DNA of 53,663 bases. It comes from a virus. Taxonomy: Duplodnaviria > Caudoviricetes. The notes beneath the pieces were generated by a model. It saw nothing but the letters and a program-made list of their open reading frames with translations, was not told the DNA's origin and ran no database searches. This document shows, one piece after another, positions 2,963-26,681 of the stretch. How positions within the stretch are numbered: position 1 is the first letter of the stretch; each line of letters begins with the position of its first letter. The position numbers were made by a program, and so were the translations under genes. The stretch lies in the IMG/VR virus record IMGVR_UViG_3300037424_000334, positions 1 to 53,663 of that record; one strand, 5' to 3'.

Positions 2963-2965
2963 CAC

Positions 2966-3155: not shown

Positions 3156-3159
3156 ATGA

Positions 3160-3230: not shown

Positions 3231-3232
3231 CC

Positions 3233-3307: not shown

Positions 3308-3367
3308 TTCCCTTGATTTCCTCCGATCCCCGTGGCAATCTCCCGCGCGAGGGTCGGAGGAACAAGC

Positions 3368-4023: not shown

Positions 4024-4024
4024 C

Positions 4025-4429: not shown

Positions 4430-4466
4430 TCGTCCGTACACTGATTGTCAATGATTCGGGGTTGCT

Positions 4467-10038: not shown

Positions 10039-10208
10039 TCGCAATCGAAGGCGACTTCGTTCCGAGGACAGGTCCTCGTTGAGTGAAGTCGAGGTAAGAC
10101 TTCTCCGGGTGATCCGGGGCTGTCAGGAAGGCGGTGGGATACCGCGCCTCTCTGCCAAACCCAGGTTTTGTCACCGCGCCACAGGCGCATCAACCGGAGG
10201 CTCCTCCC

Positions 10209-11189
10209 ATGCCCACAGTCACCCTTGCAGAATCCGCAAAGCTCGCACAGAACGAACTCGTTGCTGGCGTGATCGAGAACATCATCACGGTGAACCGCTT
10301 CTATCAGGTTCTCCCGTTCGATGGCATTGAGGGCAACGCCCTCGCGTACAACCGTGAAAACGCACTCGGCCCGGTCGCAACGGTCGGCGTGGGTGACACG
10401 GACGGCGACATCGGCGCAGGCGCAACGACTGGCAACAACCAGACCGAGCGTCAGGCTGCGAAGGACGCCGCAACCTTCACGCAGGTTACCAGCACCCTGA
10501 CGACCATCATGGGTGACGCGGAAGTCAACGGCCTCATCCAGGCGACTCGTTCGGGCGACGGCAACAACCAGACCGCCGTTCAGATCGCATCGAAGTCCAA
10601 GAGCGCTGGCCGCAAGTACCAGGACCTCCTCATCAACGGTGACGGCACGAACTACACGTTCGCCGGTCTCATCGCGCTGTGCGCGGCGGGGCAGACCATC
10701 GACACTGGCGTGGACGGTTCCGCGCTCTCGTTCGAACTCATGGACGAGACCATGGACGCCGTTATCGACAAGGACGGCGAGGTGGACTACCTCACGATGA
10801 ACCAGCGCGACATCCGCAGCATGAACAAGCTGCTGCGCGATCTCGGCGGCACGTCGGCGATGGACGCAATCCAGTTGCCGAGCGGCGCAGAGGTTCCGGC
10901 TTACCGTGGAACGCCTGTGTTCCGTAACGACTACATCCCCATCGACCAGGATCAGGGCACGAGCGTGGGCGTATGCTCCACGATCTTCGCCGGAACGCTT
11001 GACGACGGCTCGCGCCAGCACGGCATCGCCGGACTGACGGCCAGCCAGCAGGCCGGTGTCCACGTCGTCGATGTCGGCGAGTCCGAGACGAAGGACGAGC
11101 GCATCTGGCGTGTGAAGTGGTACGCCGGGCTCGCGCTGTTCAGCGAAAAGGGCCTCGCAATGGCTCCGGGTATCAAGGTCCCGGTCTAA
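10209..11189 (+). CDS. major capsid protein
   Basis: MPTVTLAESAKL..ELVAGVIENII..LPF..IEGNALAYNRE and RVKWYAGLALF motifs, resembling YuA/phiJL001-like capsids; GGAGG RBS. Confidence 0.92.
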   Translation: MPTVTLAESAKLAQNELVAGVIENIITVNRFYQVLPFDGIEGNALAYNRENALGPVATVGVGDTDGDIGAGATTGNNQTERQAAKDAATFTQVTSTLTTIMGDAEVNGLIQATRSGDGNNQTAVQIASKSKSAGRKYQDLLINGDGTNYTFAGLIALCAAGQTIDTGVDGSALSFELMDETMDAVIDKDGEVDYLTMNQRDIRSMNKLLRDLGGTSAMDAIQLPSGAEVPAYRGTPVFRNDYIPIDQDQGTSVGVCSTIFAGTLDDGSRQHGIAGLTASQQAGVHVVDVGESETKDERIWRVKWYAGLALFSEKGLAMAPGIKVPV

Positions 11190-11271: not shown

Positions 11272-12243
11272 ATGGCTGCGACTCCGTACCTCATTCAAAT
11301 GCCTTCGCTCGACTCTTGGCCCGCTCGTGCGCTCAAGAACGGTGTGTCGGCAATGGCGATCAACGCTGAAGCAACTGCCGACGTGAAGGCGATGGCGAAG
11401 GCGGCGAACGATGGTCCGGGCGCTGCACAGTGGGACAACGCCACCGTCACTGCTATCGCGGCTGCCGCCGATCTGAACGGATGGGGCCTGCGTCTCAAGA
11501 TTTCGAGCCCGACTGGAAACGTCATCTTCGACGAGACTGTTGAAGCTGCTGGCGCTGCTGTCGGCATCACGGCAGCGACGGGAATCCTCACGCTCGCTGG
11601 TATCCCGGCGGACGGAGACACGGTTACCATCGGCTCCACGGTCTACACCTGGGAGACCGGTGCAGTTGACGCGGCCTTCAAGGTGAAGGCTGAAACCAGC
11701 GCCGCAGTCAGCCTTGTACATCTCGTGAAGGCGATCAATCTTACCGGCGTCGAAGGCACCGACTACGGTGCGGGCACCACGATCCACCCGACTGTCAGCG
11801 CGGCTGACGGCGCGGGCGACACTGTGGACCTCACGGCCAAGACACTCGGCACGGCGGGCAACTCGATTGCCACGACCGAGGTTGGCGCGAACACCTCGTT
11901 CGGCGCGGCCACGCTTACCGGTGGTGCTGATGGCACGGACGTTCTTTCTTCCCTCGCTTCGCTCATGATGACCGCCCTCAACGCGACCGCCGACATCGCG
12001 GGCGCAGCGTTCACGTCCTCGACGAACGTCCTCACCGTGGCCGCTGCGAGCGATGTGCTCGGCGACCACCTCGTCGAAGCGATCATGGTTCCGCCGGATG
12101 CCGAGGAGAATGATGTCGGCGTGCCCGGCTTCGTGACTTCCATCACCGATGGTGGTCTCGCGTCGGCTGCGTTGTCGGTTGACTTCGCCGCCGACAACTA
12201 TGCCGTTCCCAAGGTCTTCGCGCTTCTCGGCGCGGCAACGTAA
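11272..12243 (+). CDS. virion structural (head decoration-like) protein carrying the 117-aa module
   Basis: Ala/Thr-rich; paralog of 12257-12850; directly after MCP. Confidence 0.75.
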   Translation: MAATPYLIQMPSLDSWPARALKNGVSAMAINAEATADVKAMAKAANDGPGAAQWDNATVTAIAAAADLNGWGLRLKISSPTGNVIFDETVEAAGAAVGITAATGILTLAGIPADGDTVTIGSTVYTWETGAVDAAFKVKAETSAAVSLVHLVKAINLTGVEGTDYGAGTTIHPTVSAADGAGDTVDLTAKTLGTAGNSIATTEVGANTSFGAATLTGGADGTDVLSSLASLMMTALNATADIAGAAFTSSTNVLTVAAASDVLGDHLVEAIMVPPDAEENDVGVPGFVTSITDGGLASAALSVDFAADNYAVPKVFALLGAAT

Positions 12244-12256
12244 ACAGGAGGCAACC

Positions 12257-12850
12257 ATGCCCGCATACGCAGTGACTTTTGACGAGGCCGAGTTCTCCGG
12301 CGTGGGTTCGCGCAATGGCGTGCGTGGTGCTGTCGTATTTGCGGCAGACGCCAATGACGCCAAGGCGCTCCTCAAGGCGCAGGGTGCAGCGGACATCGAC
12401 GCGGCCTGGGATGGCGCGACCTACACGGAAATCGCGGCAGGGGCAAACTTCGTCGGCTGGACGCTGCGTGTTGCCGTGACGCACCCGACCACGCACGCCG
12501 AAGTCTACGACATCGAAGTCGTGGGCGCAGGCGCGAACGACACCGTGGACGAGATCGCCGCCCTCATGGTCACGGCTCTCGAAGCTGCCGGTGCTGCATT
12601 GCTCACGCCGTCCTATGACGCCGGAACGAACATCCTCACCGTGGCCGCGATTGGTGACGCCATTGGCGACCACAACCTCCAGGCATTTTGGTACCCGCCG
12701 CAGGACGCCGTGAACGAGCGGCGCATTTCGGTGCCGGGCTTCATCGGCGCAATTGTGGATGCCGGAGTCGCGGCTGCGGTTCTGACGGTTACCCTCGGTG
12801 CCGACGCGAAGACGGTCCCGGCAGTCACCACGATGTTCAAAGGGGAGTAA
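12257..12850 (+). CDS. virion structural protein, paralog lacking the module
   Basis: Shares NGV, WDxAT, GWxLR, TNxLTVAA, GDH and VPGF motifs with upstream gene; AGGAGG RBS. Confidence 0.75.
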   Translation: MPAYAVTFDEAEFSGVGSRNGVRGAVVFAADANDAKALLKAQGAADIDAAWDGATYTEIAAGANFVGWTLRVAVTHPTTHAEVYDIEVVGAGANDTVDEIAALMVTALEAAGAALLTPSYDAGTNILTVAAIGDAIGDHNLQAFWYPPQDAVNERRISVPGFIGAIVDAGVAAAVLTVTLGADAKTVPAVTTMFKGE

Positions 12851-12898
12851 TATTCACTGCACAGTGAATTTCAGCGGGCGCTGAAAAGGGAGGAATGA

Positions 12899-13492
12899 AT
12901 GAAATTGACAGTTGTGCTGTCCGGCCCTCGGGCTGGATTTACCGGGACGCTCAAGCGTCATAACTTCGTCAAAGGGGAGACCGTCATCGAAGGAACTCCC
13001 CAGCAGGTTGAGGCCGCAGCGCGGTACTTGGCCAGAACGCATCAAGCCTTCCCGGCGGGCTCCGCCGAGTTGAAGGCGCGGATGAAAGGGAAAGCTAATG
13101 GGGTTCAGCATCTCGTTTCGGCAACTGGCCAACCGGGGAATCCAAACGGTGTACAAGGTCACGTCGATGGACAGACCGGGCCGATTCAAGCCCAAGGAGA
13201 TGTTCAACGCGATGGACATGATTCCGGACAAGCCCCCGCAGGGCGAGAGGGGCTGGGTGCCGGTGGGAGTGGACAGTCGGACTCCGGGCTTCACCCGGAC
13301 AAAGTAAAGGCGATCCGGAAAGCGATCCGCGATCTCGACCCGAAGGTCGATGAGCACTGGAGCGACGAAGGCTTGCCCTCCATCGAAGTGGTCTCGGCGG
13401 TGACCAACGACAAGAACGTGACGCGCCGGATGATCGAAGTGGTGGAGCCGAAGTTCAATCGTGAAGCTGCCAAGGAGGCGGCGGAACTGTAA
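12899..13492 (+). CDS. hypothetical head-region protein
   Basis: RBS GGAGG; C-terminal LDP..DEHWS.EGLP motif. Confidence 0.7.
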   Translation: MKLTVVLSGPRAGFTGTLKRHNFVKGETVIEGTPQQVEAAARYLARTHQAFPAGSAELKARMKGKANGVQHLVSATGQPGNPNGVQGHVDGQTGPIQAQGDVQRDGHDSGQAPAGREGLGAGGSGQSDSGLHPDKVKAIRKAIRDLDPKVDEHWSDEGLPSIEVVSAVTNDKNVTRRMIEVVEPKFNREAAKEAAEL

Positions 13493-13494
13493 GG

Positions 13495-13523
13495 TTGCCT
13501 TGCACGGAAGTGCAGCGTATATT
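13495..13523 (+). promoter_or_regulatory. putative promoter
   Basis: TTGCCT-17-TATATT. Confidence 0.45.
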
Positions 13524-13552
13524 CAACCGGTGCCAATCAATAGGAGATCGAC

Positions 13553-13843
13553 ATGGCCGAAGCCCTCTACCTCATTTCCAAGGACCGCCTCGGCGGAGCC
13601 GAAACCTTCCTGAACGGCGTGAACGCTGTCATCATCAATGCGGACGACGGCGCGACTGCTGCGGTCCGCAAGGCTGCGGCTGCTGCCGCCGCTTCGACGC
13701 ACTTCGGCGTGACCTTCCCGGCCACGTACTTCGACACCGAGCAGCTTATCACTGCGGCGTCGGGCGTGCTGAACGACGCGGGTGACGCTTATATCCTCCT
13801 CACGAGCGAGGGCACCGCGAAGGCGAAGGTTGAAGGCGCGTAA
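13553..13843 (+). CDS. small structural protein, related to the N-termini of 11272 and 12257
   Basis: NGVNAVIINA motif; RBS AGGAG. Confidence 0.7.
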   Translation: MAEALYLISKDRLGGAETFLNGVNAVIINADDGATAAVRKAAAAAAASTHFGVTFPATYFDTEQLITAASGVLNDAGDAYILLTSEGTAKAKVEGA

Positions 13844-13846
13844 TCC

Positions 13847-14047
13847 ATGGCTCGGATGCGTATCCCGAGAACGAAGGCTGGCAAGCGGGCTAAGGTTCGC
13901 AAAGTTATGCACGAGTTCAAAGCGGGTGCGCTCCACTCCGGCTCCAAACGTGGTCCCCGCGTGCGGAGCCGGAAACAGGCCATCGCAATCGCTCTCAGTG
14001 AAGCCGGGATGGCTCGCCGCAAGCGTCGGTCACGTAAACGCTATTAA
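13847..14047 (+). CDS. DUF6496-like small basic protein
   Basis: KVMHEFKAGALHSG..VRSRKQAIAIALSEA. Confidence 0.8.
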   Translation: MARMRIPRTKAGKRAKVRKVMHEFKAGALHSGSKRGPRVRSRKQAIAIALSEAGMARRKRRSRKRY

Positions 14048-14059
14048 CAGGAGAGTAAC

Positions 14060-14470
14060 ATGGCCTTGAACCTCAAGTATTCCGCGCTTCTGCGCAATGC
14101 GAAGCTCGACGCGATCACGACTCAGATCGGTACCTCGGCGCTCATCCGCATCTACGACGGCTCGCAGCCTGCAACCCCCGAGACCGCGATTGGAGCCCAG
14201 GTCCTTCTGGCCGAACTCACCGGTAACGCTTCGGCGTTCGCGGCGGCGGCTTCCGCTGGCGTGCTCACGGCCAACGCGATCACGCAGGACTCTTCGGCGA
14301 ACAACACCGGCACGGCGGCGTGGTTCCGCATTCTCACCAGCGGCGCGGTAGCGAAGATCGACGGCACGGTTGGCTTGTCCGGCACGGACATGATTATCAA
14401 CAACACGTCCATCGCTGCCGGTCAAGTCGTGTCCTGTTCGTCTCTGACGATCACCAACGGCAACGCTTAA
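14060..14470 (+). CDS. virion protein (putative head-fibre/spike base)
   Basis: RNAKLDAI..IRIYDGSQPA..NNTGTAAWFRI..DGTVG motif; precedes the repeat fibre gene. Confidence 0.65.
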   Translation: MALNLKYSALLRNAKLDAITTQIGTSALIRIYDGSQPATPETAIGAQVLLAELTGNASAFAAAASAGVLTANAITQDSSANNTGTAAWFRILTSGAVAKIDGTVGLSGTDMIINNTSIAAGQVVSCSSLTITNGNA

Positions 14471-14526
14471 AGCGAAGGTCGCGACGAGTAGCCCCATCGC
14501 TCGTCGCGATCATACGGCGGTGACTC

Positions 14527-16236
14527 ATGGCTGTTGGACACGATGCCGTAAGTGAAAGCCATACCGGCACAACCGGCTCCGCTAGCCAAGCATCTTTCAC
14601 TTGGAATCACACGCCTGTGGGTACCCCGCGCGGCGTGTTGGTCTACACCTTCGTCAATGCAAATGCAGACAACGCTCTGTCTGTAACTTACGGCGGCGTG
14701 TCGATGACGGCTGTCCCCGGAGGGCGTGCAGTTGACACCGCTGTTGAGGCTGGGGACTGCAAAGCGTGGTTCTTGGGGTCAAACATTCCTACCGGTGTCC
14801 AAGCGGTCGTCGTAAACCGCACCAACAATGCCAACGTCATGTACGCCATCGCTGTCACTCAGACGGCTGGGTTCGACACTGAAGCTACAGGCGTGGTATT
14901 GCAGCAGGAAGACCAAGCTCCTGCGCAGGCGAATGTAGACGACGGTTCTGTGTCAGGCACGAATAGCGTTCGTTACGCTGCGGGTAACTACGGTGGGTCC
15001 GGCCTTCCTGGTATCGGTGCTAACAGCACGTCCATGATTGGCATTGACTTCGGCACAAGAACTATTGGAAGCGTTCGTGAAACAACAGCCGGTACGGGTT
15101 CGCGACCGGTTGGGTTCGCGGCGGCTTCAGAAGACTGGGCTTGCGTTCTCCTGGCCGTCAGAGAGCAGGTTATCACGCTCAGCATGGCGACTACGGAAGC
15201 GGGCGACACGATGTCGGCCACCGTTGCTGTGGCTATCGACAACACCGCTGCGCTCGCCGAAGCTAACGACACGATGTCGGCAGCAGCAGAAGTCGCTATC
15301 GACAACACCGCTGCCCTCGCGGAAGCCAACGACACGATGTCGGCCTCGGCAGAAGTGGCTATCGACAACACCGCTGCCCTCGCCGAAGCTAACGATACGA
15401 TGTCGGCTTCTGTCGAAGTTGAGGAAGGTGGCATCACCACGTCCGCTGCGCTCGCAGAAGCGGACGACACGATGTCGGCCTCGGCAGAAGTCGCTATCGA
15501 CAACAACGCTGCGCTCGCCGAAGCTAACGATACGATGTCGGCCTCGGCAGAAGTCGCTATCGACAGCACCGCTGCGCTCGCCGAAGCTAACGACACGATG
15601 TCGGCCTCGGCAGAAGTCGCTATCGACAGCACCGCTGCGCTCGCCGAAGCTAACGACACGATGTCGGCCTCGGCAGAAGTGGTTATCGACTCGACTGCCG
15701 CACTCGCGGAAGATAACGACACGATGTCGGCCTCGGTTGGCGTGGAGATCGTGGTGAGCGCCGCTCTCATTGAAGCGGACGATGGAATCCTTGTGCAAGC
15801 CGCAGTGGGTGATGTGGCGACGTTTTCGGGAGCGCTCGCGGAAGACAACGACACGATGTCCGCTTCGGCTGCCGTTGCTATCGACTCTACTGCTGCGCTC
15901 GCGGAAGACAACGACACAATGTCCGCTTCGGCTGCCGTTGCTATCGACTCTACTGCCGCACTCGCGGAAGATAACGACACGATGTTGGCCTCGGTGGGTA
16001 CCGAGGTCACTACATCCGGAGCGCTCGCTGAGTCGAACGACACGATGTCGGCCAACGCCTTCACCGGCTCCGGAGACGCGCTGTCTGGCGCTTTGGCTGA
16101 GACCGGAGATACGATGTCGGCGGTCATCTTCCAGTTCACGGTTTCCCAAGGGATCAAGCTGCCCACGACAGATTCCGAATCTGATTGGAATGTAGTCGTG
16201 CCGGGCGGCAGAGACTTCGGCGTGAAAGCGGCGTAG
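14527..16236 (+). CDS. putative head fibre: beta-rich N-domain plus 15 x ~21-aa repeats
   Basis: Repeat AALAE(A/D)NDTMSASAEVAID(N/S)T. Confidence 0.7.
   Translation: MAVGHDAVSESHTGTTGSASQASFTWNHTPVGTPRGVLVYTFVNANADNALSVTYGGVSMTAVPGGRAVDTAVEAGDCKAWFLGSNIPTGVQAVVVNRTNNANVMYAIAVTQTAGFDTEATGVVLQQEDQAPAQANVDDGSVSGTNSVRYAAGNYGGSGLPGIGANSTSMIGIDFGTRTIGSVRETTAGTGSRPVGFAAASEDWACVLLAVREQVITLSMATTEAGDTMSATVAVAIDNTAALAEANDTMSAAAEVAIDNTAALAEANDTMSASAEVAIDNTAALAEANDTMSASVEVEEGGITTSAALAEADDTMSASAEVAIDNNAALAEANDTMSASAEVAIDSTAALAEANDTMSASAEVAIDSTAALAEANDTMSASAEVVIDSTAALAEDNDTMSASVGVEIVVSAALIEADDGILVQAAVGDVATFSGALAEDNDTMSASAAVAIDSTAALAEDNDTMSASAAVAIDSTAALAEDNDTMLASVGTEVTTSGALAESNDTMSANAFTGSGDALSGALAETGDTMSAVIFQFTVSQGIKLPTTDSESDWNVVVPGGRDFGVKAA
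15181..16130 (+). repeat. ~63-bp coding tandem repeat, 15 copies
   Basis: Recurrent GACACGATGTCGGC core; some copies near identical. Confidence 0.9.
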
Positions 16237-16295
16237 GGTTGAGGATTTAATACCGGCGTGGTAGTCATATAGGCTAATTTCCAGAGAGCGCGACC

Positions 16296-17294
16296 ATGCA
16301 CCAGTTGCCCGATCTTCACCCGATGATTGCCGTTTCGCAGAGTAAGACCCTCGCCGTGGATTTCGGGGGTGTTCTGCCGAGCGGAGTGACACTCGTGGTA
16401 GTGCCTTCGGCCCCCACGATCACCCTCACAACGGATAACGGCACCGACGCCACTCCGCAGGATCGGCTCACGGTGGGTCCGTCCATCGGGACCCTCAGTG
16501 TTGCTGACGGCGGAACCGGAGTCGCGAACGCGGCGCTGTTCTTCCAGTTGTCCGCTCTCGTGCTCGGGGCCTCGTATCTCCTGGTGTATTCGTCCTATGC
16601 GAGCAACGGCGACCGGATCGCAGCGTTCAACCATATTCGCGCAGTAGGACCGGCGTCAGTCACGCTCGTGGCCGAAGACGGCTCTGGCGATCCCACCGCG
16701 AACTCGTACATTGATGTCGCATTCGCTGACACGTACCACTCCAATCGCGGGAACGAATACTGGATGGCGCTGTCGCTCAACAACAAGAAGGCGTGCCTCA
16801 TTCGCGCGACCGACTACATCGACAAGCGCTTCGGCGACCGCTTCCGTGGCTTCCGGATGCAGAAGGACCAAGCGCTCGCATGGCCGCGTCTGTCGGCGTT
16901 CGATGACGACGACTTCACTCTGGATGATGTCCCGACTGGTCTCCAGAAGGCCACGGCGGAGTATGGCTTGCGCGCCGCTATCTACAACGTGCTCGCGCCG
17001 GACCCGGTGCGGACGACGCCGAGCCAGGACATGAGCGACGAGGACACTCCCAACGAATCGAGCGCCGAGCTTATCGTCGGGCCGCTCAAGTCCAAGACGG
17101 AGAAGGTCGGGCCGATTCAGAAGTCCGTGACCTACGAGGGCGTGTCGCAGCTTACGCAAGCGAACCAGCGCAGCACTCGCGCCGGTCAATCCACCACCCT
17201 GAACGACATCTACATTCCCCAGTATCCGGAAGCGGACCTCCTCATTGAACGTCTTCTCGACAATGAGACCTCGACCAGACTGGAGCGTGCGTAA
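16296..17294 (+). CDS. head-tail adaptor (DnaT-like) with extra N-terminal domain
   Basis: Internal LVAEDGSG...ANSY...ADTYH..RG, ATDYID and QALAWPR motifs. Confidence 0.8.
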   Translation: MHQLPDLHPMIAVSQSKTLAVDFGGVLPSGVTLVVVPSAPTITLTTDNGTDATPQDRLTVGPSIGTLSVADGGTGVANAALFFQLSALVLGASYLLVYSSYASNGDRIAAFNHIRAVGPASVTLVAEDGSGDPTANSYIDVAFADTYHSNRGNEYWMALSLNNKKACLIRATDYIDKRFGDRFRGFRMQKDQALAWPRLSAFDDDDFTLDDVPTGLQKATAEYGLRAAIYNVLAPDPVRTTPSQDMSDEDTPNESSAELIVGPLKSKTEKVGPIQKSVTYEGVSQLTQANQRSTRAGQSTTLNDIYIPQYPEADLLIERLLDNETSTRLERA

Positions 17295-17677
17295 TGGCTT
17301 TCGATTACGCTGGACTGGCTTTGATGGCTCAGCAGCTTATCGCGGACGCTGGGCGCGAAGTCACGTTCGCGCTCAAGTCGCGCACTCCGGCTGACACCAA
17401 CAAGCCATGGCGCGGCGGCGACCCTGTGGCCGCTACAGAGTTCTCCGGCATCCCGGCTGCCATCGTACCGATTGAGTTCGTGGATCAAGAGAAGCAAGTC
17501 CTGAAGCGTCAGGCAGCGGCGACGTTGTACGTCTCGGCTCTGGAGTTCCCGGATTCGTTGGACGTGAAGCAATTGGATACCGTCGATGACGGCCTGTGGA
17601 CGTGGCGAGTGATCTCCGCACGCCCGATCATGCCGGGTGCAGTTCCGGTCATCTACGAGATGCTCCTGGAGGGGTAA
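17294..17677 (+). CDS. head-closure/stopper protein
   Basis: FDY..L...A..LI...GR.V; P.D..KPW; position after adaptor. Confidence 0.7.
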   Translation: MAFDYAGLALMAQQLIADAGREVTFALKSRTPADTNKPWRGGDPVAATEFSGIPAAIVPIEFVDQEKQVLKRQAAATLYVSALEFPDSLDVKQLDTVDDGLWTWRVISARPIMPGAVPVIYEMLLEG

Positions 17678-17678
17678 C

Positions 17679-18134
17679 ATGCCGGTCGATAATGTTGCCG
17701 AAGCTCGCGATTTCGTCATGGAGATCGTGAATACTGCATGGGCCGCGTCGGCAGAGCCCGCTGGCTATCCCGCCGCCTATGGAGCGTGGCCCCCGCCGCT
17801 GTTCTTTCAGGACGTGCCGGATGACGTGCCGAATGGGACTCCTTATGCGCTCGCGTCCATCCAGCACCGTGGCGGTGGGCCGGTAGCCATCGGAGACGCT
17901 GGACTTCGGCGCTTTCGGGCCGAAGGGACGATCACGGTGACCGTATGGGCTCCCCATGGCGATGGGTTGACAACTTCGGACCATCTCGTCACAATCGCGC
18001 AGGATGCCCTCGAAGCTCGTCACACTCCGGACAAAGTGTATTTCCGTCATGTCCGCGTTGTCGATGATGGCCGAGACGGAGCGAACAGCAAGGTTCGGGT
18101 CGTTGCCGATATTGACTACGACCGGGTGAAGTAA
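17679..18134 (+). CDS. tail terminator protein
   Basis: IG...RRFR..G.ITV.V.AP.G.G motif; precedes tail tube. Confidence 0.7.
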   Translation: MPVDNVAEARDFVMEIVNTAWAASAEPAGYPAAYGAWPPPLFFQDVPDDVPNGTPYALASIQHRGGGPVAIGDAGLRRFRAEGTITVTVWAPHGDGLTTSDHLVTIAQDALEARHTPDKVYFRHVRVVDDGRDGANSKVRVVADIDYDRVK

Positions 18135-18145
18135 CGGAGGCTGCA

Positions 18146-20095
18146 ATGGCAGAAGTTGAAAAAATTGACTCCAATAGCACTGGCCTTCGTTTCTGCGAAG
18201 AAGAGTCCATGGGAGTGCTTCCCGCTGCGGCAGACCAAGTTTGGTATCCGCTTGAGCCGAACAGCTACTCGGACTTCGGCGGTGAGGTAACGACTCTCGC
18301 ACGGCGTCCGATCAATGCGAGCCGCCAGAACCAGAAGGGCGTCGTAGTTGACCTCGACGCGAGCGGCGGTCTCAATCAGGACCTCACGCAGAACAACACC
18401 ACGCGCCTGGAGCGCGGGTTCTTCTTCGCGGACATTCGCGAAATGTTCGACACGCAATCCATCGACAGCGCAGTGAGCGACGTTGACTCGGCGCTCGCCG
18501 CCGACGACACATACAACCTGTTCAACGGAGACGATCTCGCAGCGCCGAAGATTCAGGCGCAGTCCCTCGTCCTCGCTTCCGGCTTTGACACCGCTGCGAA
18601 CAATGGTGTCTACGTGGTCAACAGCATCGCCCGCGTTCGGGCCATCGGCACTCTCACGGCGGCAGCCAACGTCAGCGATGGTGACACGGTGACCATCGGG
18701 ACGACCGTCTACTCCTTCGAGACCGGCGCGCTTGACGCGGCTTACAAGGTGCTCGTAGGCGCGACGGCTTCCGACAGCTTGGATAATCTCATCGCGGCGA
18801 TCAATGGCGCAGCGGGTTCGGGCACGCTGTACGCAACCGGCACGGTTGCACACACTCTCGTGACGGCGGCTGCCGGAGCGGGCGACACGATGGACGTGAC
18901 GGCCATCAGCTACGGCACGGGCGGCAATGCCATCGCCACGACTGAAGTTGCGGCGCAACTTTCGTGGGGCGGTGCAACGCTTACCGGCGGATCGGCTGCC
19001 ATCGACGTAGACGCGAGCTTGACGGATGAACTCGCTCCGACTTCGGCTGCCCGCGTTCAGGTGGTCGGCTATGAGTTCGCAGTTGGCACTCTCGACGTGA
19101 GCATGGCTTCCACGCTTCCGCGCCTCGTGCGCGCGAGCGGTGCTGTGGATTTCACGACCCTTGGACTCGTGGCCGGGCAGTTCATCTTCATCGGTGGTGA
19201 TGCCGCTGACGAGCAGTTCGTAACCGACGCCAACAATGGGTGGGCTCGTATCCACTCGCTTGCGGCGGCTTACATCGAACTCGACAAGACGACGAGCACG
19301 ATGGTCGCCGAAGTCGGTGCTGCCCTGACGATCCGCATCTTCCACAGCAAGGTCCTCAAGAACGAGACCGCCGAAAGCGATCTCATCGTGGCTCACTCGT
19401 TCCAGTTCGAGCGTTCGCTGGACAAGAAGGACACGGCGATTGCGGGCAAGCAAGGTGAATATCTCGTCGGCGGCTACATGAACGAATACACGATGAACAC
19501 CAAGCAGGCCGACAAGCTCAACGTGGACATGACCATCGTCGCCATCGACAACGAACAGCGCACGCAGGCGCAGGGGCTCAAGTCGGCCACCGCTCCGGCT
19601 ACCGCTGCAACGCTGGTGTCGGAAGACGCCTTCAACACGACCTCGCATGTTGCGCGCCTCCGCATGACGGTCCTCGACCCGGCGGACGCCAACCCGACGC
19701 CGCTGTGGGGCTTCTGCACGGAGTTCACGATCACGATCAACAACAACGTGACGCCCGCAAAGGCTGTCTCGCGTCTCGGCGCATTCGCCGTGACGGCTGG
19801 GCAGTTCGATGTCGGCGGCGACATCACCGCCTACTTCTCGGACGTGGCGGCAGTGTCGGCGGTTCGCGCCAACGAGGACGTGTCCTTCGACGCGATCTTC
19901 GCCCGTGACAACTACGGCGTGGCCTACGACGTGCCGCTCTGCGCTCTCGGTGACGCTCGCCTCAACGTCGAGCAGGACGCGCCCATCATGCTGCCGCTCT
20001 CGATGAGCGCCGCTGAGGACCGCACGTTCCACCACACGCTGCTGAAGACGTTTTTCAACTACCTGCCGGACTTGGCGATGCCGTCCAGCGGATAA
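18146..20095 (+). CDS. major tail tube protein carrying the 117-aa module
   Basis: KIDSN.TGLR..EE, WYPLEPNSYSDFGG, RQ.KG.VVDLDASGG (YuA-like tube). Confidence 0.88.
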   Translation: MAEVEKIDSNSTGLRFCEEESMGVLPAAADQVWYPLEPNSYSDFGGEVTTLARRPINASRQNQKGVVVDLDASGGLNQDLTQNNTTRLERGFFFADIREMFDTQSIDSAVSDVDSALAADDTYNLFNGDDLAAPKIQAQSLVLASGFDTAANNGVYVVNSIARVRAIGTLTAAANVSDGDTVTIGTTVYSFETGALDAAYKVLVGATASDSLDNLIAAINGAAGSGTLYATGTVAHTLVTAAAGAGDTMDVTAISYGTGGNAIATTEVAAQLSWGGATLTGGSAAIDVDASLTDELAPTSAARVQVVGYEFAVGTLDVSMASTLPRLVRASGAVDFTTLGLVAGQFIFIGGDAADEQFVTDANNGWARIHSLAAAYIELDKTTSTMVAEVGAALTIRIFHSKVLKNETAESDLIVAHSFQFERSLDKKDTAIAGKQGEYLVGGYMNEYTMNTKQADKLNVDMTIVAIDNEQRTQAQGLKSATAPATAATLVSEDAFNTTSHVARLRMTVLDPADANPTPLWGFCTEFTITINNNVTPAKAVSRLGAFAVTAGQFDVGGDITAYFSDVAAVSAVRANEDVSFDAIFARDNYGVAYDVPLCALGDARLNVEQDAPIMLPLSMSAAEDRTFHHTLLKTFFNYLPDLAMPSSG

Positions 20096-20138
20096 TTCGG
20101 GGTTAACGACGCCGCCCGGCGGATAATTCGGGCTTAAC
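20088..20138 (+). repeat. 20-bp direct repeat x2, CtrA-box-like
   Basis: GCGGATAATTCGGG(G/C)TTAAC at 20088-20107 and 20119-20138. Confidence 0.8.
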
Positions 20139-20151
20139 CAGGAGGAAGTGC

Positions 20152-20595
20152 ATGAGTGATGTGAATGGCAGCGTCCTTGCTATGTTCGCAACGAACAAGG
20201 ACGCGGAGAAGAAGGGGAAGTGGATTGAGGTAGGACCGGCCAGCTTTTTGATTGCGCGTGCCGGTGGCTCCAACACGAAGTTCGAGCGGGCAGTATCCGC
20301 CGTCCTTCGCCCGCATCAACGCCGCATTCAGAACGGCATGATGAGCAACGCCGAAGCGGAGAAGCTCTCCATCGAGCCCTTCGCTGAAACCGTGCTCCTC
20401 GACTGGAAGAACGTCCGGGCTGCGGTCCAGGACGAGACCAACGAGTGGGTTGTCGGTGAGCCGATCCCGTTCTCGAAAGAGAAGGCCGTGAAGGTCCTCG
20501 ACGAGAACCGTGACTTGTTCCGGTATCTGTTGGAAGAGTCCCAGCGGCTCGCCAACTTTGCGCCGGAGTTCGTGGCGGACGCCTCGGGAAACTGA
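20152..20595 (+). CDS. tail assembly chaperone (G)
   Basis: FATNK.AE..G.W..IARAGG.N..F; ends in GGGAAAC-TGA. Confidence 0.85.
   Translation: MSDVNGSVLAMFATNKDAEKKGKWIEVGPASFLIARAGGSNTKFERAVSAVLRPHQRRIQNGMMSNAEAEKLSIEPFAETVLLDWKNVRAAVQDETNEWVVGEPIPFSKEKAVKVLDENRDLFRYLLEESQRLANFAPEFVADASGN
20586..20592 (+). other. -1 programmed ribosomal frameshift site G GGA AAC
   Basis: X XXY YYZ heptamer just before the stop; -1 frame is open into ORF 20616-21014. Confidence 0.85.
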
Positions 20596-21014
20596 CATCG
20601 GTCCTCCTCTACGAGTTGGAGCAGGGACCGACCGAACAATTCATCATCGACCAAGCCCGGAAAAATCGGGCTCCGATTCCGGATAGGATTGCGAATGCCC
20701 CGGTGCTTCAACCGGGGCTCGCATTCTACTACCGGGCCTTCCTCGCGCTCTCATCGTGCCGTCCTATCGGCATGGCCGAGGGTCGCATTCCGTGGACTGC
20801 TGTGAACGACTACGCCGTCCGGTATGGCTTGGACGAGGAGGAGCTTGACATCCTCTGGACCCTAGTCTGTGAGATGGATACCGTGTATATTCGCCATCAG
20901 CAGAAACGGGCTAAGATCGCACCCTCGAAGGGGAAACCGACTTCGGACAGTTCGAAGACGGACTCCAAGCCGGGTCCGCGCATCATTCGCCCACCACGGA
21001 AGAAGACCCGGTGA
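20592..21014 (+). CDS. tail assembly chaperone frameshift extension (GT)
   Basis: AFLALSSCR..GM..GRIPWTA...YA motif; reached by -1 shift. Confidence 0.8.
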   Translation: MTSVLLYELEQGPTEQFIIDQARKNRAPIPDRIANAPVLQPGLAFYYRAFLALSSCRPIGMAEGRIPWTAVNDYAVRYGLDEEELDILWTLVCEMDTVYIRHQQKRAKIAPSKGKPTSDSSKTDSKPGPRIIRPPRKKTR

Positions 21015-21484
21015 TGGCACAGCCCTTCGAAAATCTTCCTCTCATTTTGTCGCGCCGCCAGCAGGAGATGATCCGGCTGGTGAACGGCATTGTGCAGAAG
21101 GCTGCCTTCGAAGGCGGAGCGTATCTCGTGCGCGAGACTCCGGTGAAGCGCGGCATTGCGCGCTCGAACTGGGTGGCCAGCCTGGACCAGCGGTTCAGCG
21201 CGGTTCTCCCGGCCTACAGCCCGTATCCGGCTCTCGACAATCGTCCGGCCCCGATCTCCATGAAGTTCGAGTCTGCGAACGCCCTGGCGGCTGTGGCGCA
21301 GCATACGGCGACGACTGCGCGGTTCGACTCGCGCCGGAATCGCACCGTGTTCATCCAAAATAACGCAGACCACATTGCCGATCTCAACCGGGGGCGCTCG
21401 CAGCAGAGCGCTGCCGGGTGGTTCGACAAGTGCGCTAATGTCGCGAAGGCGGGCATTCAGGGCATGTGGAGATTGAAGAAGTAA
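21011..21484 (+). CDS. tail completion/neck protein (HK97 gp10-like)
   Basis: TPV..G.ARSNW..S; IQNN..HI..LN.G.S.Q. Confidence 0.75.
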   Translation: MMAQPFENLPLILSRRQQEMIRLVNGIVQKAAFEGGAYLVRETPVKRGIARSNWVASLDQRFSAVLPAYSPYPALDNRPAPISMKFESANALAAVAQHTATTARFDSRRNRTVFIQNNADHIADLNRGRSQQSAAGWFDKCANVAKAGIQGMWRLKK

Positions 21485-21488
21485 GACC

Positions 21489-24182
21489 ATGGCAACAGAA
21501 GTCTTGGAACTCGTAATCGTCACGCGCGGCGCAGGTCCCGCCGCCGGACAGATTAATCAGATCACGCGGTCGGCGAACGTCGCGGCGACTGCGCTGCGCT
21601 TTCTGCGTAACGCCCTCGTCGTGTTCTCGGCCATCCGCGCTTTCTCCGGCATCACCGCGCTCGTGGACTCCTTCACGGAGATCACGACGAAGTTGAAGCT
21701 CGTGACGAACTCGACTGAGGAGCTTACCGCCGTGACGCAGGCGTTGTTCAATGTGTCGCAAGAGACTCGAACTTCGTTCGAAGCGAACGTCTCGCTGTTT
21801 AATCGCGTTGCCCGTGCCACGACCGGCCTCAACCTCAACTACCAGCAGTTGATCGACACGACGCGAACCGTGTCGCAACTCATCAAGATCAGCGGCGCGA
21901 CCACGCAGGAATCGACGGGCGCTCTCATTCAATTCTCGCAGGCCCTCGCGTCCAACCGACTGTCCGGCGACGAACTGCGTACCGTGCTTGAACAGTTGCC
22001 GCGACTCGCGGACGTGATCGGCAAGGAGTTCGGAATCTCCGGCGCTTCACTGCGCGCCCTGGCGAACTCGAACCCCGGCATCATCACGACTGAGAAGATC
22101 ATGCGTGCCCTGGCGAACGCCGGAGCCGAGACCGGTAAAGAGTTTGAGAAGGTTGTGCCGACCATCTCGGACGGCTTCACCCTTGTGAACAATGCTCTCA
22201 CGCTGTTCATCGGGCGCGTAAACCAAGCTGGCGGTATCGGCGCGTTCCTGTTCGAAGTCCTCGCGAAGATCGCGGAGAACATCGACCTCATTGTCGTCGG
22301 GCTTACGGTGCTCGCCGCCTTGACGGTTTTCAACTTCCTTGCCAGCCAAGTCGTGGCCTTCGCCACAGCGACCGGCACCGCCCTCGGCGTGGTCCTCCGG
22401 CTCGTGAACTTCCTCACGTTCAGCATCGCCACCCTCACGCGCGGGCTTATCCTGCTGGGGACGGCGTTCCTGACGAACCCGTTCTTCCTTGCTGCGACGC
22501 TTATCGTCGGCGCTATCGTAACGGCATTCTTCGTTCTCGGCGGCACCATCGAAGACGTGACGAAATCTTTCGGCGGTCTCAAGAACGCGGCTAACGTAGT
22601 CCTGGCGGGTCTCATGACCTTTGTCGAGATCGTGTTCACGCGGTTCGACCTGTTGGGCAAGGCCATCATCGAGCCCTTCGTTGACGCCTTCGACATTCTC
22701 GGCAAGCTCCTCGGCGAGTTCCTGGACTTCATGTCCCGTGCGCTGAAAACCGTCAGCTTCGGGGCTATCGACCTCGGCGAGTGGGACGTTCAGATCAACA
22801 CCGCGACCAACTTCGCGTCCGGTGCAGGTGCAGAACTCGGTAAGGCTCTGTCCGAGAGCTACCAGAAGAACCTCGCTCTCGATCCGGTCGGTTCGCTCGT
22901 TAAATTCGGTAAAGACGGGCTCGCCGCTCTGCGTAAGCTGTTGACCGGTGGCCAGATCGACAACAGCGTGCTCCAGAATAAGCCGCCTGCGGGGCTGCCG
23001 GGGGCCGAGCTTGACACGGGCGCAGATAAGCGCGCACAGCTTTTGCAGCAACTTGAGAATTTCCTTGCGCGCATCAGTCCGAAGTTCGACATCAGTTCCA
23101 AGTTGCTCAAATTGCGCACTCTGTTTGAGGAGGCCCTTGATGCTGGCGTGCCGGTGGCCGAGTTGTTCGCTCGTATCGGCGGGTTCCCCGAGGCTCTCAA
23201 GCGTGTGGAGCGCGAAGAACTCGGCGTTGGCAACGCGACAGCGTACTACACTGAGCGCGTGGACTTGTTGAACGACGCTCTCAAGCGCAACATCATCAAT
23301 CAAGCTGAGGCCACGGAGGCACTTCGCAAGAACCGCATGGAGTTCCTTGAATCTCAGCGCGACATCGCCAGCGGAATCGAACTCGCCCAGCTTAAGAAGG
23401 CGGACACGTTGTCTAACAAACAAGCCATCGCGACCGATGTAGTTGGGGACGCCCTCAAGGAGCGCACCGCGTTGGAGACGTTGACGATCCAGGTGGAGGC
23501 CCTCAACGAGGCGAAGCGCCAAGGCGTCATCACGAATGAGGAGTTCACCAACTCCATGCGTGAGTCCCAGCTTGCAGCCCTGGCCGGACAGAAGGACGCC
23601 CTCAGCGGCTTCCAGCGTGGCATCCTGCTGGTTCAGAAGGACCTCGCCGACGTAGCGTCGAAGGTGGCCGATATTGTCGTGGGGTCGTTCAAGAAGCTCG
23701 AAGACGCGCTCACGTCGTTCGTAACGACCGGAAAGCTCGACCTCGGCGACCTGTTCAACTTCATCTATGAGTCTCTTATCCGGCTCGCCATTCAGCAAAG
23801 CATCATCAAGCCGCTCTCTGACTTCCTCGGCGCTGGCGCTGGAACGGCAGGCGGAGGTGTGGGCGGTGGAGGATTCGATTTCGGCGCTCTCCTCTCGTCG
23901 GTCGGCTCGGCGCTGTTTGGCGCAGCGAACGGCGCACAGTTCATGGTAGGCGGCGCAGGCGGCACGGACAGCCAGCTTGTCGCGTTCCGTGCATCGCCGA
24001 ATGAGCGCGTCACGGTGGAGACTCCGGAACAACGCAATCGCGGAGAGGCTACCCAGCAGAACATCAGCATGACGTTCAACATCAACGGGGTCACGGACTA
24101 CGATAGCTTCCAGCGGTCGGAGGACCAAATCTACACTCGTGCCGCAGCGCGCCTCCAGCGTGCCGCAGCGCGCAACGGGTAA
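21489..24182 (+). CDS. tape measure protein
   Basis: Tape-measure N-domain QFSQALASNRLSGDELRTVLEQ; hydrophobic middle; C-terminal GGAGGTDSQLV..ASPNERV. Confidence 0.93.
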   Translation: MATEVLELVIVTRGAGPAAGQINQITRSANVAATALRFLRNALVVFSAIRAFSGITALVDSFTEITTKLKLVTNSTEELTAVTQALFNVSQETRTSFEANVSLFNRVARATTGLNLNYQQLIDTTRTVSQLIKISGATTQESTGALIQFSQALASNRLSGDELRTVLEQLPRLADVIGKEFGISGASLRALANSNPGIITTEKIMRALANAGAETGKEFEKVVPTISDGFTLVNNALTLFIGRVNQAGGIGAFLFEVLAKIAENIDLIVVGLTVLAALTVFNFLASQVVAFATATGTALGVVLRLVNFLTFSIATLTRGLILLGTAFLTNPFFLAATLIVGAIVTAFFVLGGTIEDVTKSFGGLKNAANVVLAGLMTFVEIVFTRFDLLGKAIIEPFVDAFDILGKLLGEFLDFMSRALKTVSFGAIDLGEWDVQINTATNFASGAGAELGKALSESYQKNLALDPVGSLVKFGKDGLAALRKLLTGGQIDNSVLQNKPPAGLPGAELDTGADKRAQLLQQLENFLARISPKFDISSKLLKLRTLFEEALDAGVPVAELFARIGGFPEALKRVEREELGVGNATAYYTERVDLLNDALKRNIINQAEATEALRKNRMEFLESQRDIASGIELAQLKKADTLSNKQAIATDVVGDALKERTALETLTIQVEALNEAKRQGVITNEEFTNSMRESQLAALAGQKDALSGFQRGILLVQKDLADVASKVADIVVGSFKKLEDALTSFVTTGKLDLGDLFNFIYESLIRLAIQQSIIKPLSDFLGAGAGTAGGGVGGGGFDFGALLSSVGSALFGAANGAQFMVGGAGGTDSQLVAFRASPNERVTVETPEQRNRGEATQQNISMTFNINGVTDYDSFQRSEDQIYTRAAARLQRAAARNG

Positions 24183-24190
24183 GGTGAGCC

Positions 24191-24817
24191 ATGAGCTTTC
24201 ACAATGTACGACTTCCGGAAGACATCGAGAAGGGCGCAGAGGGCGGACCCGGCTTCAACACGACCGTGCTCAAGCTCTCATCCGGCTACGAGCGCCGTAA
24301 CATCAACTGGGAGCGCGAGCTTGGCGAGTGGGACATTGCCTACGGCATCCAGCACAAGGAAGACCTCGACGCGGTTATGAACTTCTTCTACGTGCGGCGC
24401 GGCAAGGCATACGGATTCCGTTTCAAGGACTGGTCGGACTTCGAGATCGGAGCAACCGGAAGCCCGCACACCATCGCGACCGGCGACGGGGCTACGGCGG
24501 CGCATCAGGTTTACAAGACCTACACCGATGCGGGCGGCACGTTCCAGCGCAAGATCACTCGCCTCGATCCCGATTTCCCTATCCAGGTGTACGTGGACGG
24601 CGTTCTGAAGACGCTCACCACGCACTACACCGTGGACTACGACACAGGAATCATCACCTTCACAGGCGGCAACATCCCTACTCTCGGCCAAGTGATCGCG
24701 GTTATCGCGTGGTTCGACGTGCCGGTGCGCTTCGACATCGACAAGCTGCGCGTCCGCATGGAGTGGGAGGACGCGATGGAGATTCCGAACATCCCCATCG
24801 TAGGCATCAAGGAGTAA
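24191..24817 (+). CDS. distal tail protein DUF2460 (RcGTA g12-like)
   Basis: MSFH.VRLP..I..GA.GGP.F.T; G..YGFRFKDWSD; FDVPVRFD.D. Confidence 0.92.
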   Translation: MSFHNVRLPEDIEKGAEGGPGFNTTVLKLSSGYERRNINWERELGEWDIAYGIQHKEDLDAVMNFFYVRRGKAYGFRFKDWSDFEIGATGSPHTIATGDGATAAHQVYKTYTDAGGTFQRKITRLDPDFPIQVYVDGVLKTLTTHYTVDYDTGIITFTGGNIPTLGQVIAVIAWFDVPVRFDIDKLRVRMEWEDAMEIPNIPIVGIKE

Positions 24818-24820
24818 CTT

Positions 24821-26263
24821 ATGCCGAAAACTATTTCCGTAGGGCTCGATTCGCATCTTCAGGGAATCGTAACCACGTTGGCACGGTGCTGGAAGATCAC
24901 GCGCCGCGACCAGACGGAGTTTTTCTTCACCGACCACGACGTTGCGATTGAGTTCCCGGTAGGCAGCGGCGACATCTACATCGCGTGGGGCGGGTTCAAT
25001 TCCACCGCCGTCGCGAACAACGCATCGCTAAACGTGGACAATCTCACCGCCTCCGGGTTCTTCGACGACGCCACCATCACCGACGAGGACATCAAGGCGG
25101 GCCTGTTCGACTATGCTGAGGTCCGGCTGTTCGTCGTGAACTGGGCCGATCTCTCGCAGAACGAGCTTAAGATGCGCCGTGGCTGGCTGGGCGAAATCGT
25201 GACTTCGCCGTCCGGCATGTTCAAGACCGAGCTTCGCGGCATGACCCAGGTCCTCGCGCAGACGATCATCGAACTGTTCGGGCCGGAGTGCCGCGCCGAC
25301 CTTGGTGACTCTCGCTGCAAGATTCCCATTGACCCGGCTGTGCGGTTGAACGCCACCGTGTACGAGGAGGGCGACTTCATCAAGGTTGCTACCGCCGCAG
25401 GTACCGACTACTCTGTGTATGAGAACGTGATCTACGTCGCGCTCAACGACGGGACCACGGCGGGTTCGCCACCGGCATTCGATACGACGCCGGGTAACAC
25501 GACACAGGACGGCGGCGTGGCCGCGACCGGAACGCTTACGCTCACCGGCAATGCCGCGAACACGAACACCGTCACGACCGGAGATAAAGTTTACACTTTC
25601 CAAACGGTTCTCACGGACGTGGACGGGAACGTCCTCATCGGCGCTACGGCGAGCGACAGCATCGACAATCTCATCGCGGCCATCAACCTCGGCGCGGGCT
25701 CCGGCACGGTGTACGCGGCTTCCACGACGGCTAACGGCTACGTGAGCGCGGCGGCTGGCGCTGGTGACACCATGGACGTTACGGCCCTCGTCTCCGGGGA
25801 CGCTGGCAACGACATCGCCACAACGGACAACAATGCGAACATGGCCTGGGGCGGCGCATCACTTAGCGGCGGCATCAGCGGCGTTCTGTGGGAGGCCGTG
25901 ACGGCATGGTCGCGCGATTTCGAAGTGGCGACGGTCACGGACCGTTTGGAGTTCACGATCACAGTAACGGAGCCCCGCGCGGTGGACGGCTGGTTCGACG
26001 GCGGCGTGGTCGTGTTTGATGGTACCAGCGACAATGCAGGCCGTGCTTTCGAGATCAAAACCTGGGACCAAAGCAGCGGGCAAGTCGTCCTGTTCCTGCC
26101 GGTTGGCTTTGACATCCAAGTAGGCGATACTGGGCACATCTACCCAGGGTGCGACAAACGAATGGTCACATGCCGGGACAAGTTCAATAACATCCTCAAC
26201 CGTCGCGCCGAGGACTACCTGCCTGGACGTGACGGGGCCTTGGAGACCCCGAATGCCCACTAG
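24821..26263 (+). CDS. baseplate hub DUF2163/BR0599 (RcGTA g13-like) with insertions
   Basis: TTLARCWKITRRD..FTDHD; CRADLGD.RC; GCDKR...C..KFNN..N. Confidence 0.92.
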   Translation: MPKTISVGLDSHLQGIVTTLARCWKITRRDQTEFFFTDHDVAIEFPVGSGDIYIAWGGFNSTAVANNASLNVDNLTASGFFDDATITDEDIKAGLFDYAEVRLFVVNWADLSQNELKMRRGWLGEIVTSPSGMFKTELRGMTQVLAQTIIELFGPECRADLGDSRCKIPIDPAVRLNATVYEEGDFIKVATAAGTDYSVYENVIYVALNDGTTAGSPPAFDTTPGNTTQDGGVAATGTLTLTGNAANTNTVTTGDKVYTFQTVLTDVDGNVLIGATASDSIDNLIAAINLGAGSGTVYAASTTANGYVSAAAGAGDTMDVTALVSGDAGNDIATTDNNANMAWGGASLSGGISGVLWEAVTAWSRDFEVATVTDRLEFTITVTEPRAVDGWFDGGVVVFDGTSDNAGRAFEIKTWDQSSGQVVLFLPVGFDIQVGDTGHIYPGCDKRMVTCRDKFNNILNRRAEDYLPGRDGALETPNAH

Positions 26264-26681
26264 AGACGAGTTCATCGCGCAGGCACGCACGCACATCGGG
26301 ACGCCCTTCAAGCATCAGGGGCGTTTGCCCGGTATTGCGCTCGACTGCGTAGGGCATCTCGTGCTCGCCCTGAGCGCCATTGGCGTGCCGGTCGTGGACA
26401 CGAAGAACTACCGCCGTCACGCCGACTGGCCGGTGTTCATGGCGAAGCTGCGCGACCACGGCGAGTTCATCGGCGCGAGCCGTGAAGCCGTGCGGCCCGG
26501 CTGCATCCTCGCGCTCAAGGACGGCAAGTACCAGACGCACTGCGCCATCGCCGCGTTCAAGAACGGCGAGATGACGATCATCCACGCCTATGAGCCCTAC
26601 GGCAAGACTGTCGAGGAGCGCTTGACCTCCGCGCATAACGTGAAAGCCGTCTTCTGGCCGAACGGAGTGACCGATGGGTAA
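26253..26681 (+). CDS. NlpC/P60 tail peptidase (RcGTA g14-like)
   Basis: AR..IGTPF.HQGR.PG..LDC.G; H.A...IIHAY. Confidence 0.9.
   Translation: MPTRDEFIAQARTHIGTPFKHQGRLPGIALDCVGHLVLALSAIGVPVVDTKNYRRHADWPVFMAKLRDHGEFIGASREAVRPGCILALKDGKYQTHCAIAAFKNGEMTIIHAYEPYGKTVEERLTSAHNVKAVFWPNGVTDG

Follow-up and report, generated by a model that had tools for sequence, protein, structure and literature searches.

What does one and the same protein module do in three different structural proteins of a single phage? The question is raised by a linear IMG/VR virus record (IMGVR_UViG_3300037424_000334; 53,663 bases, estimated to be 82% complete), which was analysed over its whole length and is referred to here as the window. 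In our best explanation the window appears to come from a YuA/PhiJL001-like siphovirus, in which a segment of 117 amino acids (aa) lies within a head-region virion protein (protein A), the tail tube protein and the baseplate hub. The segment is taken to be an accessory domain that folds on its own and has entered surface loops of all three proteins, and it comes from a family that phages move between unrelated structural proteins. This structural and evolutionary part of the account, which covers homology, insert status, fold class, promiscuous distribution and constraint, is very probably correct. The function of the module is far less certain, and the reading that we favour, in which it serves as an accessory surface for adhesion repeated many times across the particle, is given a probability of about 0.42.

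Each copy of the module consists of 351 nucleotides (nt) that translate in frame, on the plus strand, into an open stretch of 117 aa. The three copies align without gaps over all 117 residues, with 68 identities between the head-region and tube copies, 58 between the head-region and hub copies and 70 between the tube and hub copies, and 47 of the 117 columns are invariant across the three. A hidden Markov model (HMM) made from the three copies was compared with all 749 open stretches that the window has in its six frames and matched these three places only (E 3e-57 to 2e-56; next best, E 1.5); a search of the whole record returned the same three. Chance or low-complexity similarity is ruled out by the gapless alignment and the HMM E-values. 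Translation, alignment and HMM agree with an earlier note on this DNA, which had described three homologous in-frame segments of this length, had set the significance of their similarity beforehand as the point on which the claim could fall (the E-values found are of the order of 1e-57), and had named the carriers as a head-region protein, a tail tube and a baseplate hub. The carrier assignments follow from Pfam, PHROG and TIGRFAM matches, with “head” assigned by synteny and PHROG category only.

Table 1. Module copies, their carriers and two adjoining genes in the window.
Feature	Position	Strand	Location or size	Supporting match
Module copy 1	11575..11925	+	residues 102-218 of protein A	HMM E 3.3e-57
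Module copy 2	18641..18991	+	residues 166-282 of tube protein	HMM E 1.1e-56
Module copy 3	25523..25873	+	residues 235-351 of hub	HMM E 2.4e-56
Major head protein	10134..11189	+		phrog_212 E 3.2e-67; PF17236 SU10_MCP E 2.1e-5
Head-region virion protein A, carries copy 1	11272..12243	+	323 aa	phrog_15312 “virion structural protein”
Paralogue B, uninterrupted form	12257..12850	+	197 aa	phrog_15312 full length, E 8.4e-31
Tail tube protein, carries copy 2	18146..20095	+	649 aa	PF18906 Phage_tube_2 E 1.6e-22; phrog_290 E 6.7e-63
Baseplate hub, gene transfer agent (GTA) type, carries copy 3	24821..26263	+	480 aa	PF09931 (8-168) and PF09356 (390-471); TIGR02218 E 2.5e-51

At the DNA level the copies are 56-64% identical, third codon positions are 37-45% identical, and the longest exact match between copies measures 10-14 nt. 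The low third-position identity and the absence of exact matches longer than 14 nt rule out recent duplication or gene conversion within the genome, and recent duplication is also contradicted by the position of the copies in a phylogenetic tree, where they are not sisters (see below). The three copies, which the note had likewise described as not recent, are old.

Comparison with relatives of the carriers revealed that the module is an insertion and not part of their core. Protein A and paralogue B are tandem paralogues (window positions 11272-12850) that are 39-40% identical, and BLASTP aligns them in two pieces, residues 22-95 and 218-319 of A, which abut in B and so confirm the “empty site” described in the note. 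All 23 of 23 further relatives of B in a large protein collection are 188-209 aa long and uninterrupted at the module site. Tube relatives were found in 438 phage records. The YuA-, NP1- and phage-73-like tubes match the window tube in two pieces that together span about 80% of it and leave out only the module; relatives without the insert are about 509-552 aa long, and in a multiple alignment the JG012 tube (509 aa) and PhiJL001 gp78 (552 aa) show a clean gap at the module site. In the hub, the module sits in a variable stretch between two conserved hub domains. The same stretch holds no insert in Tetraselmis viridis virus S20 and is occupied by Laminin_G_3, which is concanavalin A-like (ConA-like), in PhiJL001 gp84; gp84 (L008:298-2067) is the type hub of PF09931 and carries Laminin_G_3 at residues 260-396. 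At the position of the window's module, the hubs of R4C and RcGTA are described, in the available text of PMC10276861, as having an “oligosaccharide-binding domain” (residues 162-243). Because PhiJL001 gp84 carries Laminin_G_3 where the window hub has the module, the middle of the hub is a general cargo site. The segment is thus absent from B, from its 23 relatives and from relatives of the tube and hub, as expected if it is no core part of these families, and since the carriers work without it in these relatives, the module is an add-on. Empty sites of zero length suggest that its N and C termini lie close together.

The structure of the module was predicted from an alignment of 123 sequences, comprising the three copies and 120 short single-module proteins. 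The AlphaFold2 model (predicted local distance difference test score, pLDDT, 96.9; predicted template modelling score, pTM, 0.91) describes a beta-hairpin-rich alpha/beta domain with one 13-residue helix, and this confident stand-alone model, together with the absence of the segment from the paralogue and orthologues, upholds the proposal of a separable plug-in domain. In an exhaustive fold search of 48,161 chains with VIA, a tool for which best Z scores of 7-8 are common background, residues 94-185 of the cyanophage A-1(L) sheath (8kee_A) matched at Z 11.4 (rmsd 2.4, 89 residues aligned). The nozzles of the T7 type from P-SCSP1u, Kp7, T7 and HRP29 (residues ~148-248) matched at Z 7.6-9.6, the sheath of phiTE (9cb9_A) at 8.7, the Mu sheath (9khy_a) at 8.1 and the XM1 sheath at 4.8. 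Domains D2/D3 of FliD (Z 5.9-7.1; entry 5h5v, Z 6.5) and residues 173-281 of Pseudomonas aeruginosa flagellin FliC (Z 6.8) matched within the background range. Foldseek likewise placed the A-1(L) sheath at the top (8kee, E 0.011), followed by the Milano sheath. The likeness to sheath insertion domains that had been noticed by eye therefore holds at the level of fold class, as may that to flagellin variable domains, and the predicted fold appears to be of the kind seen in outward sheath insertion domains, in the T7-type nozzle domain and in the outer domains of FliD and flagellin. A search of 177,635 PDB sequences with the 123-sequence profile gave no relevant match (only CopN, E 0.86), indicating that no member of the module's sequence family has been solved. 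Prediction of a two-copy complex scored 0.00, which has no bearing on self-association either way.

The same folds were encountered in the carrier without an insert. In an AlphaFold2 model of paralogue B (pLDDT 78), residues 64-170 match the PDB domains matched by the module (T7-type nozzles, Z 6.6-7.3; A-1(L) sheath, 6.1; FliC, 5.3), at scores (Z 5-7.3) that are background level, and a helix-loop-strand motif of B resembles that of the module. The head-region carrier may itself be built from the module's fold. The fold search with B returned no capsid-decoration match above background.

How widespread is the module? A profile of the three sequences matched 4,798 proteins at E≤1e-3, 2,938 at E≤1e-10 and 446 at E≤1e-30, all counted as representatives of 50% identity clusters, which places the module in a very large family and makes it no peculiarity of this genome. 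Seventeen columns are conserved in at least 90% of the 123 family sequences. Single-module proteins of 115-205 aa number 285 at E≤1e-8, and nearly all of the best 150 matches contain 2-13 full or partial copies, one having a single copy. Module positions 1-33 and 31-117 often repeat as separate units; such arrays are laid out as several N-units (~33 residues), one full module and several C-units (~87 residues), and occur in loci L011, L012, L013, L016, L022, L023 and L075 and in proteins P0010 and P0013. In L011, L013, L022, L023 and L075 the array gene lies directly upstream of the gene for the Ad1 head-tail adaptor. The window has in this slot, which holds module arrays in other phages, a 569-aa protein without the module (14527-16236, upstream of the Ad1 adaptor; phrog_38872, with a weak Pfam match of coiled-coil type).

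The family is largely nameless. No Pfam family was found for the three copies at E≤10, apart from a sub-threshold match of DUF929 to copy 1 (E 0.055), and no NCBIfam model at E≤0.1. The nearest ESM Atlas clusters are viral and without names; one match there to a crAss auxiliary capsid protein (score 0.89) is a candidate lead only. The literature searched contained no description of the sequence family; supplementary tables, which lay outside that search, may hold models of it (for example of the Lydia tail tube).

The carriers are diverse. Among 82 non-redundant carrier open reading frames (ORFs) from 86 fetched loci, Pfam recognised Phage_tube_2 (6), Laminin_G_3 (5) and, once each, a cement protein, a tail sheath (PF04984/PF17482), an SU10 adaptor and an XM1 minor capsid protein. 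PHROGs added head closure Hc3 (5), major head proteins (3), sheath (2), tail fibres (3) and one each of baseplate wedge and head decoration, and the majority of the 82 ORFs matched neither database. In BFVD the module was further met in PhiJL001 gp68, in two proteins of Rhodobacter phage RcTitan and in proteins labelled “major tail protein” and “major capsid protein”. Module matches were also found in 11 bacterial or archaeal assemblies from many phyla, where they may derive from prophages or mis-binned viral contigs. One such match, on a contig of a metagenome-assembled genome labelled Lysinibacter sp. (L088, 1715-4003), encodes a 763-aa tube with two tandem modules near its N terminus; this tube is very like that of the window (E 4e-127) and sits on a contig binned to an actinobacterium, so that the binning or the host may be wrong.

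The sites of insertion vary even within a single protein family. In the tubes of Sonora and Simon the module lies near the N terminus (residues 35-149 and 50-168, respectively), and in those of the window and of the IMG/VR locus L017 at residue 166. (The Simon tube gene, in an UNVERIFIED record (L096, 2354-4568), appears split over the overlapping frames 2354-3421 and 3255-4568, through either a frameshift or an error of sequencing.) Among hub relatives, one to three modules sit either at the window's site or between residues 43 and 53 of the hub. In PhiJL001 the module occurs in two proteins, gp68, which follows the coat protein, and gp75, which is homologous to the Ad1 adaptor. The carriers are a gp68-like protein and the tube in one complete 63-kb virus, and three neighbouring proteins in each of two other viruses. 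As many as two or three carrier ORFs lie within the fetched stretch in 10 of the 86 loci (L031-L033 being near-duplicates), so deployment in several proteins, three included, is not unique to the window phage. Among related phages its presence is mosaic: in the head slot only, in the tube only, or in both.

Phylogenetic analysis leads in the same direction. A maximum-likelihood tree was built from 447 distinct full-length instances, and in it the smallest clade that unites a given pair of window copies comprises 288-447 leaves. The tube copy is 72% identical to the L017 module, and modules in unrelated proteins of ~650 aa show 70-79% identity to the hub copy, compared with 50-60% among the window's own copies. 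These ~650-aa proteins were considered as tubes and rejected (hhalign with the modules removed, E 0.37); in L024 such a protein sits ~1.8 kb downstream of the major head protein. Varied sites within one family, many unrelated carrier families and non-sister copies in the window support spread by domain shuffling among unrelated structural proteins, as the earlier note had suggested it might. Transposon-like insertion was rejected, the only junction repeats being 7-nt chance matches. An origin of the module from the C-terminal domain of protein A itself finds no support in the sequence: the local patterns are alike, but the profile-profile comparison was not significant (probability 0.9%, E 0.061).

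A second module is shuffled as well. The C-terminal ~75 residues of PhiJL001 gp68 (L002:8875-9690, residues 162-271) share 41% identity (E 7e-13) with a segment inserted at a third tube site, residues 127-198 of the tail tube of Sphingomonas phage MMDA13 (L009:286-2127). In several IMG/VR proteins of 280-295 aa (L034, L014, L026/L027) this second domain comes after the 117-aa module.

The L017 tube, an orthologue of the window tube with the module at the same site, allows the constraint on the module to be compared with that on its carrier. The modules are identical at 84 of 117 residues (72%), compared with 70 of 149 (47%) and 150 of 345 (43%) in the two flanks. Fourfold-degenerate sites within identical residues gave 18/54 for the module and 29/89 for the flanks, 0.33 in both against 0.30 expected. 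Synonymous saturation is equal, so the divergence is equally old, and the module is more constrained than its tube protein. For this pair, sequence comparison indicates purifying selection on the module. Recent horizontal replacement as the cause of the 72% identity is excluded, synonymous sites being saturated in module and flanks alike.

What, then, would the module do? An adhesive role is favoured because of the outward-domain fold class, the dispensability of the module in relatives, the hub site at which relatives have sugar-binding domains, the company of its carriers and the adhesin-like arrays. The hub site coincides with the oligosaccharide-binding domain described for R4C/RcGTA hubs in the accessible portion of PMC10276861, and also with the ConA-like Laminin_G_3 of PhiJL001. 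The module co-occurs with Laminin_G_3 (lectin-like), Beta_helix and tail-fibre carriers, and its tandem arrays of up to 13 units resemble those of adhesins. Its composition over 468 instances, rich in Thr (17.8%), Ala (17.2%) and Gly (13.0%; 48% for the three) and with only 2.5% Lys plus Arg, is like that of exposed filament domains. Under this reading the module would be presented on the outside of the particle, presumably over the whole virion, and would form a generic, low-specificity adhesion surface along head, tail and tip, one that might anchor the particle to some conserved constituent of cell surfaces or of polymers outside the cell. It would be a non-immunoglobulin counterpart of the immunoglobulin-like (Ig-like) accessory domains of phages. 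The greater conservation of the module than of its carrier argues against a fast-evolving, host-specific receptor binder and, if the module is adhesive, points to a widespread ligand.

Several observations weigh against adhesion. A shared fold shows no function, and for the sheath insertion domains themselves a review (PMC9230969, available text) proposes tail stabilisation in addition to adhesion. Foldseek found nothing in the PDB at E≤0.001, and in the VIA search only the A-1(L) sheath stands clearly above background, the matches at Z 8-9.6 being near it. The location of protein A on the head, encoded directly downstream of the major head protein, comes from gene position and the PHROG category “head and packaging” only. 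Finally, identities of 50-79% across phages of very different hosts are unusual for a receptor-binding part, and such strong conservation fits a structural role equally well.

That structural role is the alternative that survives best, and we consider it doubtful. The module would contact neighbouring subunits or other modules and so stiffen the head lattice, the tail tube and the tip, much as cement proteins and the extra domains of sheaths are believed to brace particles. The carriers are mostly lattice or ring proteins, cement and minor capsid proteins among them, and strong sequence conservation suits a fixed protein-protein surface. The closest solved folds are the same sheath insertion domains for which tail stabilisation is proposed alongside adhesion (PMC9230969, available text), and an accessory domain near the head of R4C is assigned, in the part of PMC10276861 at hand, to local stability and not to adsorption. 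However, close relatives assemble without the module, which is therefore not needed for assembly, its differing sites in the same tube and hub families are hard to square with one specific lattice contact, and long tandem arrays and single-module small proteins are atypical of braces.

A stronger version of the adhesive reading was also considered, and its probability is likewise low. The module would be a universal particle coat used by tailed phages of many hosts, presenting one conserved binding surface on head, neck, tube, sheath, fibres and hub to one widespread ligand, perhaps the flagellar filament or a polymer common to envelopes or the extracellular matrix, with the domain selected more tightly than its carriers. 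If true, this would constitute a second, non-Ig adhesion system of the whole virion beside the Ig-like domains.

Protection of the particle is improbable. In this explanation the module would shield or disguise conserved virion surfaces from proteases or from host defence sensors for tube, capsid or hub proteins, some defence proteins being triggered by the tail tube protein (PMC10981675, in the text available). The module is nearly free of Lys and Arg and is placed in several abundant structural proteins at once, as a shield might be, but a disguise is expected to vary fast, while the module evolves more slowly than its carrier, and a conserved add-on would itself be an easy recognition target. 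Slightly less probable still is a neutral passenger, a stable, tolerated domain spreading by recombination without benefit to the phage, for although the module is dispensable in relatives, mosaic among related phages and flanked by no transposition-like repeats beyond the 7-nt chance matches, the constraint upon it contradicts neutrality: it is more conserved than the surrounding tube, with synonymous sites saturated, all three copies are intact despite their old divergence, and the family has thousands of members with 17 columns kept.

Among known systems, sheath insertion domains (A-1(L), phiTE, Mu, Milano and the insertion domain, “InD”, of Vibrio phage XM1) give the best fold matches. They are nested in a tail-protein loop and point away from the tube-binding core, and the module is likewise nested. 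The XM1 InD is nested in the N-terminal domain of the sheath and is similar to FliD D3 (5H5V), as stated in the available text of PMC10457771; both it and the module match this FliD entry, and one Pfam-recognised sheath is found among the 82 carriers. In contrast, the module is only 17-22% identical to solved examples, the window carriers are a non-contractile tube, a hub and a head-region protein with no sheath, and the promiscuity of the module family goes well beyond that on record for domains of sheaths.

Phage Ig-like domains (Big_2, I-set, fn3), reportedly first surveyed by Fraser and colleagues, share with the module its promiscuity, dispensability and empty sites. They are dispensable accessory domains found on many structural proteins and are thought to be mobile and to aid adsorption (PMC10276861, PMC9230969; available portions). 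Unlike them, the window copies have no Ig-like Pfam match at E≤10, the predicted fold is alpha/beta with a helix, and the module is usually internal, not appended, and often occurs in tandem arrays with separately repeating sub-parts. The outer domains of flagellin and FliD may resemble the module in fold (FliD Z 5.9-7.1, FliC Z 6.8, in the background range) and are, like it, rich in Thr, Ala and Gly with few basic residues, and those of flagellin, like the module, are nested, in their case in a conserved polymerising core. In contrast, sequence similarity to them was not found, D0/D1 helices are absent, and nothing links the window phage to flagella. The window hub shares with the RcGTA, R4C and PhiJL001 gp84 hubs the N-terminal attachment domain and the C-terminal BR0599 domain, as well as neighbours, a DUF2460 distal tail protein (24191-24817 in the window) and a Phage-tail_3/Rcc01698_C protein (26674-30201), which flank the hub gene. 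The hub middle differs, being an oligosaccharide-binding domain of ~80 residues in R4C (PMC10276861, as far as available), Laminin_G_3 in PhiJL001 and ~220 residues including the module in the window.

Promiscuous, dispensable accessory domains are thus already established for the Ig-like case (PMC10276861, PMC9230969), and the module's fold class had been noticed in sheaths (PMC10457771), within the text available from these sources. New here are a specific, very large and uncurated sequence family of a known fold class, its use beyond sheaths in tubes, hubs, adaptors, capsid and accessory proteins, and exact filled and empty sites, with several proteins per particle and tighter constraint than in the carriers. 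Accessory domains influence the places at which phages stick, the distance over which they diffuse and the stability of the particles, and their sites are natural tolerated insertion points for engineering. In this case a compact, confidently folding module is defined and, for a tube, a hub and a head-region protein, the precise sites with and without it. Its conservation, which exceeds that of its carriers, and its use in several proteins of the same particle mean that the module has a function that merits a search; even short of that, a domain model would annotate thousands of “hypothetical” phage proteins.

The remaining features concern the carrier genes and their setting. The match of phrog_15312 to protein A covers only residues 222-318, its C-terminal third. 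The tube protein matches Phage_tube_2 with 80.8 bits (cut-off, 27), profile positions 2-266 being spread over residues 10-622. In the hub, PF09931 (171.1 bits) and PF09356 (73.3 bits) both exceed their cut-offs, and TIGR02218 scores 174.9 bits against a cut-off of 80.5. By protein similarity the nearest isolates, none of which is close at the DNA level, are YuA/M6-like and NP1-like Pseudomonas phages, Stenotrophomonas phage Sonora and PhiJL001. Other genes in the window encode a terminase, a portal, a tape measure protein, a DNA polymerase, an exonuclease and a ligase.

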